Source: Eledone cirrhosa
Lineage: Eukaryota
Direction of reading: 5' to 3'
DNA length: 64,000 nucleotides
Assembly: GCA_964016885.1 (NCBI GenBank)
Contig: OZ024740.1
Coordinates: 289,416,001-289,480,000, forward strand
Position 1 is the first letter of the stretch, and each line of letters opens with the position of its first letter. Below the pieces are notes generated by a model. The model worked only from the letters and a program-made list of their open reading frames with translations, was not told where the DNA came from and made no database searches. Positions 10,799 through 61,925 of this stretch are shown in pieces. Made by a program: the position numbers and the translations under genes.

Positions 10799-11830
10799 TC
10801 TTTATTATTAGCCACAGGGGCCAAACATAGAGGACAATACAAAGAAGGGGACAGTGGGGATTTACATGCAATCGAGTAACAAAAATTAACAAAACAGATA
10901 AACAAAAAAATATCAACAACAGAATTCCTCCAATAAAAGGGGATACCACCCAGGGGCGACGTTATGAACCCTACAAATCCCCCCCCCCCTCGCCTCATTT
11001 CCTAGAGTACCCTAGGAGGGCGCTCCTCTTTCCCTCCATTTTCCAGCCTACATGCACATGCACATGCACAGGCCATTTTCGCAACAATACAATGATCTAC
11101 CTTTTTAAAAAATGTTCTGTGGGGCAGCATTTCTCTCTCCACCCTTATCTTCCTTTCCAAGCGGAACTTGAAAAAGTTACGAGGACTTGACCAAAGAGGA
11201 AAGTGTCTGTCTTCAGACCTTTCAGTCGCGGCGTCCACCACACAACCCCTTTTGCTACAGCTATTAGACTGAGTAAAACTGCCTGCTCTTCCAGGTCAAA
11301 AGAAGGCGGCGTAGCGATCTTCACTATGGACTTGATCGATAGTCGAATGCCTCCCACACGTGACAATAGTTGTTCGACATAACTCCATAAGTCAGCAATA
11401 CACGTGCACTTGACAAGTGCGTGTAAAAGGGTTTCGTCGCTCTGCGCGTATCTCGGACAGTTCCGTCTGACAGCACTACGGTCCCTATAGAGTTTATCTC
11501 GAATCGGCAGTGCACCCCGGTAGCACTTCCAAGCGATGGACTTTTTGAAATTGTGCATAGTCCCCGGATCGAAAGTCCTCCGTAAAAGACTGGCTAGTTC
11601 ATTCTCGTCGACGCCTAGAATATCCCCGAGAGTGTAGTCGCACTTGCCCACCACCAATTCTCTATAGACAATCCACTGACCGCATTGCCCGCCTGGTAGA
11701 GGGCAGTGAGCACCTGGCAACATTCCAGATGCCAGGCGCCCAATCTCGGTCTCTTCTTGATCCAGGACTGCAGCTCAGTCAAAGAAATGAGCTGCGGAGA
11801 GGCCCGTCTGATAAACGGCGATCAAACCTG
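10799..11830 (-). mobile_element. 5'-truncated L1/Tx1-type LINE 3' fragment
   Basis: ORF 11145-11723 (AWKCYRGALP...CPRYAQSDETLLHALVKC) is homologous to the C-terminus of the LINE at 59500-60150. AATAAA lies on the minus strand at about 10801. Confidence 0.8.
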
Positions 11831-25247: not shown

Positions 25248-25631
25248 TTTCATTTTTTTCCGTTTATATATATATATATATATATAAACGGAAAAAAATG
25301 AAACGAAATTTCATTTCTCACTCTTAGTACGGCTGTTACTTAAATATAAGTATGTATACGTACATACATATATGTATACAGACGTACAACAAGACACTGT
25401 ACGGCTTAATTCGGGTTGTTTGTTTATAAACACACCGAGCATTATATTAAATGTTCGCTGAATCCATACGTACATATATATATATATGTGTGCATGTATG
25501 TATATATATATACATACTACTGTACGTCTGTATACATATATGTATGTACGTATACATACTTATATATATATATATATATATATGAGAAGATTGGAGTGCT
25601 GCGTGGTTGCACATGGGTTACATATGAATAA

Positions 25632-25711
25632 AATTAGTTCTTCATCAGCGATTTTCCAACCTTCATTGGTATTCCATCGCTTTAAAAATCATATACCTCT
25701 AGTTGGTGCGA
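25632..25711 (-). ncRNA. Permuted hammerhead-like motif (degenerate copy, GAAA mutated to GGAA) inside a repeat at about 25588-25925
   Basis: Minus strand reads tcgc-a-ccaact-aga-ggta-TA-tgatttt-taaa-gcgat-GGAA-tacc-aatgaa-ggttgg-aaaatcg-CTGATGA. It is a paralog of 54402-54481. Confidence 0.55.
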
Positions 25712-26104
25712 GCAATAGCTAAATAAAGCTATTGGGACAAGTAATATAGCGTGAAGCGAGCGAGAGATGTAAACAAACAAAGATGGTATTGCAACGGAAA
25801 GATAGAAAGAAACAAGTACATGATATCTATTAAGCTTAAGCTTGGTGAATTCATGGACGAGAGAGATATACAGACCATCCGACATGGGTGAGGTGTGAGC
25901 GAGAAAAGGATTTCACACAGGTCAAACTTTTGACCAATCCTTGTGACAATCACTTTTACCATACATGGAATTACCCCCGAGAAGCTCGGCTATTCATGTA
26001 CAAGGATAAAAATTTTCATTTAGTCGATAATTAGCCGTCGAAACGGCTTGAGCTCAGCCGTCGGGGTCCTACTCGTTGCTATATATATATATATATATAT
26101 ATAT

Positions 26105-44382: not shown

Positions 44383-45120
44383 ATGAAAGGAATGTTAATG
44401 GCTGCGCAAGAGCAGGCCCTCAAAACGAAGTGGTTGAAACACCATATTTACAAGGAGGAGGCTAGCCCACTGTGCATGATCTGTGGAGAGAGAGAGGAGA
44501 CTGTGGCTCACATTGTATCCGAGTGTAAACACCTAGCCCAGACTCACTATAAGGGCTGGAGACATGATGTGATGGCCAGGGTGATCCATTGGCACCTATG
44601 CAAAGTAAACAATTTACCACATTCTGAGAAGTGGTATGAGCATAAGCCAGAGGCGGTGATAAAAAACGATCAGGTGAAGGTGCTATGGGATTTTAGGATA
44701 CAGACGGACAAGAAACTGGAACACAATAGACCTGACCTGGTGGTTTTGGATAAAGAAAAAAGATCGTGCCTGATCGTGGATGTGGCCTGCCCATTCGACA
44801 CGAGAGTGCAAGAGAAGGAGAGGGAGAAAATTAACCGATACCAGGACTTAAAGTGGGAGGTAAAAAGGATTTGGAACTGCCATGAAGTCAAAGTGATCCC
44901 GATTGTGATAGGCGCACTAGGGACTATGTCAAAAAGTTTCCAGGGATGGTTAAAGAAAATTGGCCCCTTCACGCTTTTTGGAACGCTTCAAAAGGCATGC
45001 TTGCTGGGAACAGCAAGAACCCTCCGATACGTCCTGAATATCTGAGGCTGCAGGTAGTGGCTTGATATTCATTTCAACAAACTTTCCAGTTAACTAACAT
45101 CAATGACTGAGACTCAAAGA
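44383..45120 (+). mobile_element. R4/Dong-like retrotransposon, 5'-truncated, with an intact C-terminal ORF (44383-45045)
   Basis: AAQEQALKT, CMICGEREETVAHIVSEC, RHD and RPDLVVLDK...IVDVACP...EKINRY. The 3' end runs into (TAA)n, and the element is absent from copy A. Confidence 0.88.
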
Positions 45121-54277: not shown

Positions 54278-54358
<81 letters not shown>

Positions 54359-54401
54359 ACATGGCGTGCTGCGTGGTTGCAAATGGGTTACATATGAATA
54401 A

Positions 54402-54481
54402 ATTTAGTCCTTCATCAGTGATCTTCCAGCCTTCATTGGTATTTCATCGCTTTAAAGACCATATACCTCCGGTTGGTGCGA
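54402..54481 (-). ncRNA. Permuted (non-cyclic strand order) hammerhead-like motif with an intact core, inside a repeat at about 54353-54890
   Basis: Minus strand reads tcgc-a-ccaacc-gga-ggta-TA-tggtctt-taaa-gcgat-GAAA-tacc-aatgaa-ggctgg-aagatca-CTGATGA-aggactaaa. Confidence 0.62.
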
Positions 54482-55280
54482 GCAACGGCTAAAGAAAGTC
54501 GTTGGGACACGTAAATAGGGGGAACGAGCGAGACTGTAAACAAACAAAGATGGTAATGCAACGAAAAGTGAGGAAGACGGAGTCAAGTCCCTGAAATCGA
54601 TGAATATAAGTTCTGTGAAATCGTAGACGAGAGAGAATAAAGACCATCCGACCTGGTCGAAGTGTGCGTGAGGAAAGAATCTCGCACAGGTCAAACGGGA
54701 GGAAGTAGGAGAGGGAGTAGCAGAGAGTGAGTGAGTGAAGTGTGAGGAAGAGGCTAACAGAGAGAGTGACTGTTAGAGGGGGTAAAAGGAAGTGAGAGAT
54801 ACAGAGAAAAGGCGAAGCAGTAAGTAAGAAACAGACGGGTCACAGCGGAGGAAAATATATATGAATATGAAAACATGGCGTGCTGTGCAAATACGGGTTA
54901 GGAGGCGAGGCTGTGTGGTTACTGAAAACGAAGTGTTAGAAGGTAATCGGGACACAAACAAAAGAAGAAAAGTTTCCGTGGAGCTATCGCTGGTATATGA
55001 ACATTAAACCTATCAGTAAATGGCAGGCCAACGACCTCTCACGCTTACAGCCGCCATCCCCAGGTATATATATATGTTTCTTTCACCTTTGTCTTCCCAC
55101 GATGGGATCTGTACACTTTTTTTTTTTTAATTCCTTTCCTATTTTTCCCCTTCTTCCTCTCTCCTCATCTTTCCACCTCCTGTTCTTCCTCCTTTCCCTC
55201 TCTTTCTTTTCCCCTCTCTCCTTTTTCTCTCTCTTTCTCTCTCCTTTTCCACCTGGCCTTTTGATTAATAAAAGGCCTCG

Positions 55281-55358
55281 GGCGCACCCGAACTACACCG
55301 ATGTCCTGTAATTCAGCGCCGAAACATCGGTTCGGGATACATTTACAGCTGACGATGG
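55281..55358 (+). ncRNA. Permuted hammerhead-like motif from a second sequence family
   Basis: ggcgc-a-cccga-actac-accgatg-TC-ctgtaa-ttca-gcgcc-GAAA-catcggt-tcggg-atacat-ttacag-CTGACGA-tgg. Confidence 0.62.
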
Positions 55359-55562
55359 AAACTCCTTTCTTCCTTTCTCCTCCTGTTCTGTTTGCCTGTC
55401 TGCCTGTCTATACGCCATTCATACACATATATGATATATACTGGTGTAGGTAAACGTGAGCTAAAGAACGTGTATAATTCTATACAAAAGCATAATGAGG
55501 GTACAAATATATCTGACAACATGCGTACTTTTTTTTTTCATGTTCATCACTTTTTATCGAAC

Positions 55563-56830: not shown

Positions 56831-59800
56831 ATGGCTTCTCTCAGAATAGGTAACATAAATGCACGTGGCCTGGGGTCGTCTTGGAAGCAGGACCAACTGC
56901 TGAACGTTCTCAGGTCGCTAAACATAGATGTGGTGGCCATCAGCGAAGCCGTCCCGGATCGGGGGGGGGGGGGGCGTGTTGTTCGGGAGAAGTCTGGATC
57001 TTCTTTGACCCAGAGGGTAAGTTGGTGGTACTGGACTTGACCAGCGGAGAAGGACAAGCTTTCAGGCTAGTGGCCGCCTATGCCCCAACAGGAGAAGGAC
57101 AGCCTGAATTCTTCCGGCGTCTGGAGACCTTTCTTGGAACGTCCTGCTCTCTAGTGTTAGTGGGCGACTGGAACGGGATCTTAGATGCACGCTGGGATTG
57201 TGTGGGATTAGCGGATAGGGGAGGAGGGTGCAAAAGTCGCACAAACCTACTCAGGCATTTTCAACTGTCGGACAGGTACCGATTGGATTTTCAGAATGTG
57301 CCAATGTGGACTTGGACAAACCGTATCGGGTCATCGAAATCATATCTAGATAGAGTATTTTGTAGGGAAACAGATAGGTCTAGCATAGGCTGTCCACAAT
57401 TCAAGATAGTCAGCTACACGGACCACAAATTCGTGATCTGTGTGGTTGACTTAGATAGGCTTCATAGACAGGGACCCGCCTACTGGAAACTAAACGCATC
57501 GCTAACAGCGCGCAAAGCTTACAGAGACCGGATTAGCGAATTAGTTAAGCGGGCGTTGACAGGGGCCATCGTGAACAACAAGTGGTCGTTTGCTCTGAAA
57601 AGAGCGATTAGAATAGAATCCATTAGGTTTAGTAAGGCTTTAGCAATAGAGAAAAATAGAGCAGAGGGAGAACTAGTTAAGAAAATAGACGAGGCGCTTA
57701 GTAAAGGCATCGCGACCGACGTGCTTGCGGCGAAATTGGCTCTCGACCAATTTTTCAACGCTAAGCACGAAGGCTGCGTTGTCAGAGCTAGGGTGCGTGC
57801 TCTCAGACACGAGGGGACAAAAGCCGTTCAATGGGCCCGGGTGGCGGAGGCGCGTCGTGGCAACAAAGCCACGATCCGGTCTTTGGCGAACCAAATGACG
57901 GGCACATGATACTCGATCCCGGGCAGATGTGTGCAGCTTTTCAGCAACACTTTGCTCTGCTATTCGGGAGCAATGGCGGGCCGCATCGCGGAATGCACTT
58001 CAGTGCCTACCTCGACCAACTGCCGCGGCTCTCGGCCACTGAGGTGGAGTGTTGCGAAAGGCCGATAACAGCCGCTGAAGTACGGGAAGCAATGATTAGC
58101 TGCACAATGGGTAAATCGCCTGGTTTGGATGGTCTGCCCTACGAATTTTACATACATATGCCAGGCTTGTTCGAAGACCTCTTGGCAGACGTCTACTGCA
58201 ACTGGCAGCAGAACGGGAGAATTCCCAGCTCTGTGAGCCGAGGAGCGGTGGCGCTGCTGAGAAAGGATCCGAACAAGGGGGAGAACAGAACATTTCAGGC
58301 CCATAACTCTGCTAAACACAGAGTTCAAGATTTTGGCTAAGGTGCTAGCAACGAGGCTGGCGCTTTTCGTTGGTGGTATGGTGGGAGAGGCGCAAACATG
58401 CGCCATTCCAGACAGATCCATCCACGGCAACCTCCACCTCATACGATACATCGTAGAGAGGGTAGCTAGGGAACCTGGCATGGGTGAGTCTTTGATCAAT
58501 TTATATCAGTCAAAAGCTTTTGATAGGGTCGACCATCGTTATCTGGAAGCAGTCCTAAGAGCAGCTGGCTTTGGACCTGTCTTCAGAGGCTGGATTGCTG
58601 CCATGCACAGCGACATCTGCTCTGTGGTGAGTGTGAACGGTCACCTTTCGGAACCGTTCAACATCATGCGCTCGATCCGCCAGGGATGTCCTCTCTCAGC
58701 CTTGTACGTATTGACTCTTGAGCCATTACTGCACAAACTGGAGACGTTGAAGGGGGTCCCACGTGAACTAGGATGCGGAAGAACAGTGTCAGCTTATACA
58801 GACGACATCACCGTAGTGGTGTCGAACACTAAACACATCGAGGCAATCGACACCACACTAAGAGAATACGAGGTAGTGACAGGAGCAATGATAAACCAGT
58901 AGGCCTGCAACTCGGCACCTGGGGAGGCAGGTCAATGCCGCCCAACAGCGTCGTCGGGCGCTGGACGGACGAGCCGGTTATATTGCTAGGGGTTTGGTTC
59001 TGTCCGGTCCTCCAGACGGACAAAATCTGGGATGAGGTCACAAGCAGGGTGTTTTCTCTCACCCAGAAATGGGCCGAGAGGAAGCTATCCCTGAAAGGTC
59101 AAGCGGAAGTGGCGAATGCGTACATCGCGTACGTCATCTACTACCGCCTGACCGTTGTGCCTTGTCCTAAGCCTCGCCTGACTTCACTGGAGCGTTTGCT
59201 CTTTCGCTTTTTGTGGAAGGGACGTTCTCTGATGGTCAGGCGGTCCATCTGCTGTCAACACCCGCTGCGTGGAGGGCTGGCAAAGCCGTGGCTGATGATG
59301 CGCAGACATACGCTCAGGCTACGGCATCTCCACCTCTTCCTCGACAGTTATCAAGTGTGGTCGCCCTTTGCTAGACACATGTTTCCCCAGCTTATCTCCT
59401 TGGCGGAGCTGCAGTCCTGGGTCAAGCGAAGACCGAGAAGAAGCGCTTGGAGACTAGAATGTCTTCAGGCGCTTACAGCCCTCGACCAGTCGAGCAATAC
59501 AATCGCTGGAAACTCCACCTTGGTTTTCTATAGAGGATTAGTGGAAGGAAAGAGCAACGACGTCCTTGGGGAGACTCTAGGCGTCGACGAAAACCAACTA
59601 GCCTATCTCTTCGGGAGAACTTTCTGGCCGAAGCCGATGGACACCTTCCAGAAATCCCTGGCCTGGCAGTGCTACCGAGGAGCCTTGCCAGTTGGGATAG
59701 ACTCTAGAGGCATGGAAGTGCCGTCAGCCGAGCCTGTCCGAGATGTGCACAGGGCGATGAAACCGTCCTGCAGGCACTCCCCCAGTGTCCGAGCATTACT

Positions 59801-60390
59801 GATTTGTGGGTTTATGCCGAACACATGCTGTCACGTGTAGAACGGATCCGGTTATCAGCTGAGTCCATCGTGAAGATTGCCCCGCCGCCTTCCTTTAGCC
59901 GAGAAGGGCAGGCAGTTTTTATCTGCCTGGTGGCCATGGTAAAAGAGATTTTATGGTGGACACGTCTGAAAGGGTTGAAGATGGGTACTTTCCCCTTCGA
60001 TGATGTCCTCATTAACTTTTTCAGGTTTCACCTGAAGAGGAAAATCAGGGTGCAGAGGGAAGTGCTGACCTCCAGCCAGTTTGTTGAAAGGTGGGTGAGA
60101 GAGGCAAGAATGGCCCGTGTAAATGGGTCTACCCTGAGCGTGTGCCTGTAGCATTGTAGAAGGAAAACTGGAAGAGGGCATTTGCCCTAGCGGTCAGGGT
60201 AACCGTGGCTTTTTTGTGGGCTTTCTCCACGAGCAACCCTCGCACGTATCCCCTCTATTGGGAATTTTTCATTGTTTCCTTTTGTCACACTCTGTTTTGT
60301 TTTTTTTTACCCGCAGAAATGCCCATTTGTATTGCCCTGTGTTGTCCTTAATGTTATAATTTGTGTCAACCCTTGTGGTTAATAAAGAAA
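56831..60390 (+). mobile_element. L1/Tx1-type LINE ORF2 (APE endonuclease + RT + CCHC), frameshifted, with 3' UTR
   Basis: MASLRIGNINARGL, GDWN, YLDRVF, TDH (APE); KSPGLDGLPYEFY, KAFDRVDH, RQGCPLS, YTDD (RT). The stop is at 60151 and AATAAA at 60381. Confidence 0.92.
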
Positions 60391-61787: not shown

Positions 61788-61925
61788 AATAATGGAGCTG
61801 CGGCGCTGCAAATGGGTTACATATGAAAATATATATATATATATATATAATATATATGTGTGTGTTTGTCTATATATGTATATGTATGTATATATATTAT
61901 AACAATACGACCCTCCTTAAATATA

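Follow-up and report, generated by a model that had tools for sequence, protein, structure and literature searches.

A decayed retroelement copy of Eledone cirrhosa carrying a conserved pseudoknot predicted to be a rearranged hammerhead ribozyme

Introduction

Does the unusual strand pairing at positions 25632-25711 of this locus represent a genuine RNA fold and, if so, what kind of element carries it? The window analysed here is the whole 64,000-nucleotide stretch of the Eledone cirrhosa genome, and the motif occurs in it twice, both times on the minus strand, at 25632-25711 (copy A) and at 54402-54481 (copy B). A preliminary description, made from the letters alone, presented copy A as a paralog of a permuted hammerhead with compensatory changes in its stems. 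Our analysis indicates with considerable confidence that the copy A segment is the 3' part of a decayed, 5'-truncated non-coding retroelement inserted in (TA)n, and that it holds a mutated, likely inactive pseudoknot predicted to be a rearranged self-cleaving hammerhead. The conserved fold is real and is probably a rearranged hammerhead.

The repeat family and its insertion habits

Copy A is a 5'-truncated, single-unit insertion of subfamily A1 (25588-25925, minus strand). Its 5' end lies at GACCUGUG, +272 from the predicted cleavage site, and its 3' end abuts a (TA)n-rich microsatellite (25520-25587) that represents the insertion target. Copy B (54357-54900, minus strand) is a 1.2-unit insertion, which comprises a core, a CT-rich linker and the partial tail of an upstream unit, has its 5' end at +64 in that previous unit and likewise ends in (TA)n. 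The two copies share 82% identity over approximately 338 nt, and no ORF of at least 130 aa overlaps either of them. A fragment consisting of the tail of this superfamily alone is present between two TA runs (uuuucauauguaacccauuugcag...) at 61790-61836 on the minus strand.

The extent of 25588-25925 initially given for the repeat proved too small, as the unit measures approximately 520 nt and copies consist of 1.x units. Within the unit, a CT-rich linker of approximately 175 nt comes after the core, which measures approximately 340 nt, and the tandem period is 518-523 nt. Most copies are 1.x-mers with a 3' end fixed at the TA run and variable 5' ends; an alternative 3' end is found 32 nt earlier. 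Copies often adjoin inverted, 5'-truncated partners, with TA repeats flanking both sides. In the 3.0-Gb genome, a first-look search returned 2,859 candidates with copy B as a query and 4,221 with copy A, and the identity of the 40 candidates scored in each case was 96-98% (B) and 93-97% (A). The A/B superfamily has the tail uucauauguaaccca, and the tail 14-mer has 8,822 exact genome matches versus 8 for the reversed control. Clustering of an unselected sample yielded about eight multi-member families. The A/B repeat is thus a non-coding interspersed element inserted in (TA)n.

Several other features of these loci were observed. The first 137 nt of the B core recur as a period-129 tandem array in several loci (e.g. 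G000:C12:9783493-9784016), representing an internal minisatellite. The copy L066:1390-1506 (plus strand) shows about 10 A-to-G substitutions relative to its subfamily, grouped in approximately 80 nt of the fold region, and little other change. The pattern resembles A-to-I editing of double-stranded RNA that then served as a template for reverse transcription. A different recurrent repeat (..aggaccccgacggc.gagctcaagccgtt.cgacggctaat..) is located at 25930-26080 of the window, adjoins these elements as well as lying in TA runs, and is likewise present in the flanks of L004, L063, L080 and L176.

A scan of the 64-kb window with Rfam cmscan detected no family at gathering score. At E<=10, the matches around copies A and B included no hammerhead and consisted of microsatellite-driven miRNA noise and weak C/D snoRNA matches. 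Such a miss is expected if the Rfam library models only hammerhead types I-III.

Three other identities of the repeat, as the 3'-tail hairpin of a SINE or LINE, as a C/D-box snoRNA-like element and as the end of a Helitron, seem very unlikely to us in comparison with a ribozyme linked to Penelope-like elements. The snoRNA matches cover the CUGAUGA region at 21.5-23.9 bits against gathering cut-offs of 65-85, and neither a D box nor a terminal stem accompanies them. Helitrons end in TC...CTRR, and such ends are missing here; given the anatomy of copies A and B, we set aside both the Helitron and the snoRNA readings. A fixed 3' end with variable 5' ends, together with LINE fragments nearby at 56.9-59.8 kb, would suit a SINE or LINE. 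However, the TA targets, the 32-nt tail variant and the arrangement of copies as partial tandems or with foldback partners agree with the account of Penelope-like elements in PMC8557442, and the genome holds 10,596 GIY-YIG candidates. The ribozyme elements have no relation to the LINE fragments (56881-59840, plus strand; Exo_endo_phos, E 1.5e-4; RVT_1, E 1.1e-13) or to the zf-RVT fragments at 11145-11723 and 44383-45045.

Anatomy of the fold in copies A and B

The strands of the fold follow one another in the order 5'-IV-[hairpin V]-II5'-VI5'-III5'-U16.1-H17|-I5'-(4-nt linker)-II3'-N11.1-GAAA-III3'-VI3'-I3'-CUGAnGA-N10.1-IV3'. The four helices initially proposed form an incomplete set, from which the 10.1-11.1 pair, the closing helix IV, the covarying hairpin V and the bridging helix VI were missing. 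The U that precedes GAAA has a possible partner in the A just after CUGAUGA (10.1-11.1). In helix IV, the GGAC that follows CUGAUGA-A pairs with a GUCC approximately 100 nt upstream, not with II3'; hairpin V sits between this GUCC and UCGC; and helix VI joins CCAACC, after UCGC, to GGUUGG, before the 3' strand of stem I. On this model, stem II amounts to a single core pair and, stacked with it, a helix that receives its 5' strand from upstream via a four-way junction, the members of which are the core helix, IV, V and II'.

In copy B the fold occupies 54407-54508 on the minus strand and its core is intact. Helix IV pairs 54508-05 with 54410-07, V 54504-498 with 54489-83, II' 54481-78 with 54450-47, VI 54476-71 with 54431-26, III 54467-63 with 54442-38 and I 54461-55 with 54425-19. 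H17 is A 54462, GAAA spans 54445-42, CUGAUGA 54418-12, and A10.1 (54411) pairs with U11.1 (54446).

The corresponding region of copy A (25637-25738, minus strand) is decayed. It contains IV5' (25738-35), hairpin V (25734-28/25719-13), II5' UCGC (25711-08), VI5' (25706-01), III5' GGUAU (25697-93), H17 A (25692), I5' (25691-85) and the linker UAAA (25684-81). These are followed by II3' GCGA (25680-77), U11.1 (25676), GGAA (25675-72, A13 changed to G), III3' (25672-68), VI3' (25661-56), I3' (25655-49), CUGAUGA (25648-42), A10.1 (25641) and IV3' GAAC (25640-37), a mutated GGAC.

Stem I of copy B pairs UGGUCUU (54461-54455) with AAGAUCA (54425-54419), and that of copy A pairs UGAUUUU (25691-25685) with AAAAUCG (25655-25649). 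In the pairwise alignment, from B to A, one C-G pair became U-A by a double change, G.U became A-U and U-A became U.G, with 7/7 pairs kept. CUGAUGA (25648-25642 in A), GGUA-UA/UACC and UCGC/GCGA have the same letters in both copies, and GAAA became GGAA in copy A (25675-72). Every letter in this list of differences, as drawn up in the preliminary description, is correct, but half of them are private decay of copy A. In an alignment of 81 copies from 60 loci, aaaatcG with its final G and GGAA are confined to window copy A and are consequently not subfamily states. The same is true of the GAAC of helix IV among A-type copies. The changes in stem I that are diagnostic of subfamilies in these 81 copies are G-to-A, C-to-U and G-to-A, and the subfamily states are UGGUCUU/AAGAUCA, UGAUUUU/AAGAUCA (a U.G intermediate) and UGAUUUU/AAAAUCA.

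Copy A represents a neutrally decaying insertion of subfamily A1, as no other aligned copy has the final G in I3' or GGAA. The label 'paralog' is thus misleading, because copy A is the dead transposon insertion of a sister subfamily and has not been maintained. The change of A13 to G would likely kill a hammerhead, and with helix IV also broken copy A would not cleave. Its worth lies in adding a single entry to the series of subfamilies C-G / U.G / U-A, the insertion itself being dead.

Covariation across copies

An unselected sample was built by taking the tail motif at its first 100 places in the genome; these gave 96 distinct tails, 58 of them with the full region. Alignment A2 comprises 59 rows, namely 57 sampled copies and window copies A and B; L077 was left out as non-homologous. 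Over these 59 copies, a 34-pair, seven-helix model is 93.8% paired, versus 26-48% when the partners are slid by 1-3 columns. Its covariation score is 0.180 versus 0.02-0.08 for slid partners, none of 500 shuffles reaches it, and nine pairs show double changes versus 1-5 when slid.

Stem I alone has 94.4% of its cells paired versus 41-61% slid, and a covariation score of 0.368 against a shuffle mean of 0.219 (0/500 reach it) and 0.03-0.18 slid. Double changes occur in three of its pairs (UA37/CG18; CG42/UA13/UG4; GU21/AU19/GC19), in pair 53-78 of stem III (UA31/UG26/CG2), in the 11.1-10.1 pair (UA42/CG13) and in three pairs of hairpin V. Helix II' (UCGC/GCGA) is 96.6% paired with no double change inside the A/B superfamily, and helix VI (CCAACC/GGUUGG) is 96.6% paired with only one double-change cell; no informative double changes were found within this superfamily in helices II', IV and VI. 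Mismatches include A.C in V and VI of family B and U.U in stem I of family C. The helix IV counts of 14 rows are gaps or false mismatches, arising where MAFFT puts columns 107-111 of family C off by a missing A.

The cells count copies, not events, and correspond to about four independent events in stem I and about 8-10 in all, few because all families A-H share descent. Pairing is nevertheless kept beyond chance across copies, with covariation above both slid and shuffled controls in the 59-copy alignment. The preliminary description had proposed R-scape on all genomic copies; on raw copies this would be a weak test, because insertions decay neutrally and the signal sits between subfamilies.

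Thermodynamic predictions did not single out the fold. Folding energies were no better than those of shuffles (RNAfold z 0.11, -1.42, 1.66, -0.53 and 0.43). RNAalifold on A2 gave -4.43 kcal/mol and recovered helix II' alone, being a nested-only predictor that cannot draw pseudoknots. The nested helix preferred by RNAfold, between I5' and the stretch after CUGAUGA, was rejected, as it shows no covariation and is reached by 500/500 shuffles.

The hammerhead core

The CUGAnGA strand is flush with the 3' strand of stem I in copies A and B and in the sampled families, and U4, G5 and A6 are invariant in 59/59 rows. At the level of families, the only core variation is N7 = U or C, H17 = A or C and 10.1-11.1 = A-U or G-C, while GAAA, U16.1 and CUGA-GA are otherwise constant. 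GAAA lies between stems II and III in copy B, in the unrelated family N described below and in the family medoids, with GGAA in copy A. The cleavage dinucleotide, flush between III and I, is UA in most families and UC in families E2 and N; H17 = G was seen in single decayed copies only. The core consequently varies solely where the hammerhead consensus allows it.

The conserved fold is therefore a covarying pseudoknot with the parts of a hammerhead core, in S-G-C order with a split block C.

An unrelated family with the same architecture

We searched the window with a descriptor of the core that required only GAAA, a CUGAnGA directly adjoining stem I, a stem III with the A15.1-U16.1 pair, and any base other than G at H17. 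The descriptor matched copy B and one plus-strand segment, 55248-55359, and had no match in 100 dinucleotide shuffles. The second match belongs to a non-coding element of approximately 318 nt after a TA run (55074-55391, plus strand), unrelated in sequence to A/B and located 174 nt from copy B, which we call family N. A first-look genome search yielded at least 921 candidates for it; 40 were scored and are 97-100% identical, 7 of the 40 being 100% identical over 123 nt, and the family is very young.

The rearranged fold of family N is intact. Read from the sequence, its helices on the plus strand are IV, UCCA (55248-51) with UGGA (55356-59); V, 55255-62 with 55270-77; II, GGCGC (55281-85) with GCGCC (55316-20); VI, 55287-93 with 55330-36 (7 bp); III, 55299-304 with 55324-29; and I, CUGUAA (55306-11) with UUACAG (55343-48). 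H17 is C 55305, the linker is UUCA, GAAA spans 55321-24 and CUGACGA 55349-55. All seven helices are present, with letters wholly different from those of A/B.

The likeness of A/B to N is architectural and does not extend to sequence, as a covariance model (R1) derived from A2 and encoding the nested helices IV, V, VI and III found copies A and B but did not detect family N, even with filters off; copy B scored 145.8 bits as one of the model's own training rows. No covariation is visible among the copies of family N, which are too alike (97-100%). Within the A/B superfamily, the divergent family C held by L061 shows a change of U-A to C-G in stem I and of A-U to G-C at 10.1-11.1.

It is extremely improbable that the motif arose by chance, from a random CUGAUGA heptamer in a transposon, cherry-picked short complements and transitions that happen to keep pairing. 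The window contains 42 CUGAnGA heptamers, there is no Rfam match, the folding energy is insignificant and all the stem changes between copies A and B are transitions, all of which such a reading would accommodate. It does not account for covariation far above the slid and shuffled controls, for a descriptor absent from 100 shuffles yet present in two unrelated families of the window, or for the same architecture in published Naiad consensi, as read by eye in the accessible supplement. An early reading of the motif as SINE-like or due to chance was abandoned in view of the family C changes at L061 and of the literature on type-SGC hammerheads, in the parts accessible to us.

Comparison with type-SGC hammerheads

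Type-SGC hammerheads (the HRIMA-1 motif and its variants) are natural and cleave in vitro (Eckert, Friedrich, Weinberg & Weinberg 2023, PMC10085705). According to the accessible text of that study, their linker between stems I and II is typically about 3 nt and is combined with an extra bridging stem, and non-circular permutations of an RNA fold have been documented so far only for hammerheads, from environmental sequence with unknown hosts. The fold described here resembles them in having S (III5'-UH-I5') followed by G (II3'-GAAA-III3') and then C, with the core CUGAnGA/GAAA/UH; in a very short I5'-II3' linker of 4 nt (UAAA or UAAU, and UUCA in family N) versus typically 3; in a probable extra stem, here helix VI, that would tie the far sides of I and II; and in pseudoknots that replace the three-way junction. 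An objection on grounds of topology, namely that II5', III5', I5', II3', III3' and I3' form a triple pseudoknot, was dropped because natural S-G-C hammerheads cleave (PMC10085705). The strand order published for type SGC, the covariation at family level in stem I, stem III and the 10.1-11.1 pair, and the same architecture in family N bear out the claim that the unusual pairing is real, for which the comparison of copies A and B had been put forward as the main internal evidence.

The two differ in block C, which in type SGC, as presented in the accessible text, is uninterrupted (I3'-CUGAnGA-II5'), whereas here it is split: only 10.1 follows CUGAnGA, and the rest of II5' lies upstream of S, tied in by IV and V. 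Family N, and the Naiad consensi when read by eye, lack even 10.1 after CUGAnGA. They differ also in source, metatranscriptomes and metagenomes with unknown hosts on the one hand and thousands of copies in the retroelements of an animal genome on the other, and in that cleavage of type SGC is demonstrated in vitro, whereas here it is predicted. Type-SGC-like hammerheads in animal retroelements are not described in the full-text literature searched, a corpus that does not extend to subscription journals and in which type SGC turned up in the study by Eckert et al. alone.

Relation to Penelope-like elements and retrozymes

Naiad elements, as described in the accessible part of Craig et al. 2021 (PMC8557442), use (TA)n targets and lack canonical hammerheads, some being annotated with an 'HHR_core' or, in the notes, an 'HHR_half_core'. 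Their insertions form pseudo-LTR partial tandems and inverted truncated copies and have a tail of 30-40 bp; they dominate many invertebrate genomes, with those of cephalopods being old remnants (Craig, Yushenova, Rodriguez & Arkhipova 2021, PMC8557442). The window elements share with them the (TA)n targets, the partial tandems, the inverted copies, a tail variant, here of 32 nt, and the lack of a canonical hammerhead. They differ from the portrayed Naiads in being protein-less, with units of 320-520 nt, and in forming families that are 96-100% identical, versus old remnants.

By eye, the 3' ends of the Naiad_Obim and Naiad_Ovul consensi in the accessible supplement of PMC8557442 have the same order and junction with other helices, and three closely similar consensi around Naiad_Aacu/Naiad_Anas, as well as two others, show the same architecture, again with other helices. 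A 19-nt motif from the octopus Naiad consensus has no match in the E. cirrhosa genome. An autonomous partner with a shared 3' end was sought among the GIY-YIG candidates, and none came to light in the 12 + 5 loci covered, which were without homology to the repeat and without such a fold. In three long ORFs whose position was worked out (L194-L196), GIY-YIG is at the C-terminal end.

As a separate observation, the nematode consensi that precede >Naiad_Hcon and >Naiad_Hpol in the same supplement were read by eye as type CSG, with block C intact; the type-CSG hammerhead was, according to the portion of the literature available to us, earlier known from two metagenome sequences only.

One GIY-YIG Penelope-like locus of the E. 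cirrhosa genome (L153, plus strand, around 2711) has an apparent canonical type I hammerhead (CUGAUGA ... GAAA); given this locus, it looks as though classical and rearranged hammerheads would coexist in the genome.

Animal non-LTR retrozymes have reportedly been the subject of work by Cervera & de la Pena in 2020. They carry canonical type I hammerheads and are tied to Neptune/Poseidon-type elements (Li et al. 2026, 10.64898/2026.07.22.740005), and the accessible text of this preprint does not mention permuted forms. The elements of the window resemble the retrozymes outlined there, which are short non-coding hammerhead repeats, often in tandem, proposed to be non-autonomous passengers of Penelope-like elements; they differ in that the predicted ribozyme is rearranged and most copies are dispersed 1.x-mers.

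Predicted cleavage and its DNA footprints

Transcripts of active source copies would be cleaved after H17 (in copy B, between 54462 and 54461), and this cleavage would trim read-through or tandem transcripts. Judging by its insertion habits, the element probably owes its copying to a Penelope-like reverse transcriptase of the Naiad type that is primed on TA repeats.

The 5' ends of 29 A-type loci besides the reference copy range from -113 to +273, with none at the predicted site, 16 at +7 to +99 and three upstream; B-type 5' ends are scattered much like those of A-type. A wider survey covered 97 tail-anchored copies, of which 53 pass the full-region test; in a further 13 the alignment extends back 158 nt or more beyond the site. 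Of the junctions, three fall at -99 to -16 and about 24 at 3-56 nt downstream, several of these being foldback or deletion junctions; two copies have no anchored match, and two junctions are flush with the site, though with a 4-nt ambiguity, since UAUA resembles the flanking TA. Few junctions thus occur in the 160 nt upstream of the predicted site. This distribution points, though not decisively, to a structured or cleaved template, and stalling of the reverse transcriptase in a stable knot would give the same pattern.

The latter point leads to the alternative of a conserved knot that serves as a module by which the reverse transcriptase recognises the 3' end or is primed, like other 3' UTR structures of retroelements, with the core letters kept for protein binding or folding and no cleavage. 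We regard this as rather unlikely. The fixed 3' end, at which reverse transcription would begin, does lie no more than approximately 105 nt from the fold, and many junctions fall inside the fold and not at the site, as stalling in a stable knot would produce. Moreover, stem II is interrupted beside A9. The A9/G10.1 region is catalytically sensitive, and the strand break in stem II adjoins it. A priming module, however, would not explain why the invariant core positions, the flush stems I and III and A15.1-U16.1 are kept in families with unrelated helices, why H17 is never G at family level, or why variation is confined to N7, H17 and 10.1/11.1, which is what a hammerhead tolerates; in addition, the type-SGC relatives cleave (PMC10085705, in the text accessible to us). 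A rearranged hammerhead remains our preferred interpretation of the fold.

Implications

We lean towards the wider proposal that Naiads and their protein-less passengers across animals have a hammerhead in which the S-G-C circular topology is opened at a fourth place, inside block C, and closed by a four-way junction. If so, no other natural non-circularly permuted ribozyme would come near it in abundance, and stem II could be built from three strands. Should the nematode Naiads prove to have intact type-CSG hammerheads, one retroelement clade would span several openings of one topology.

If the fold cleaves, current ribozyme annotation, which gave no Rfam match here, misses a very large class, and the hammerhead core tolerates a multi-helix junction in stem II. 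The 'missing' ribozyme of Naiads would be explained, and the permuted hammerhead would gain a host, a biological role and thousands of natural variants.
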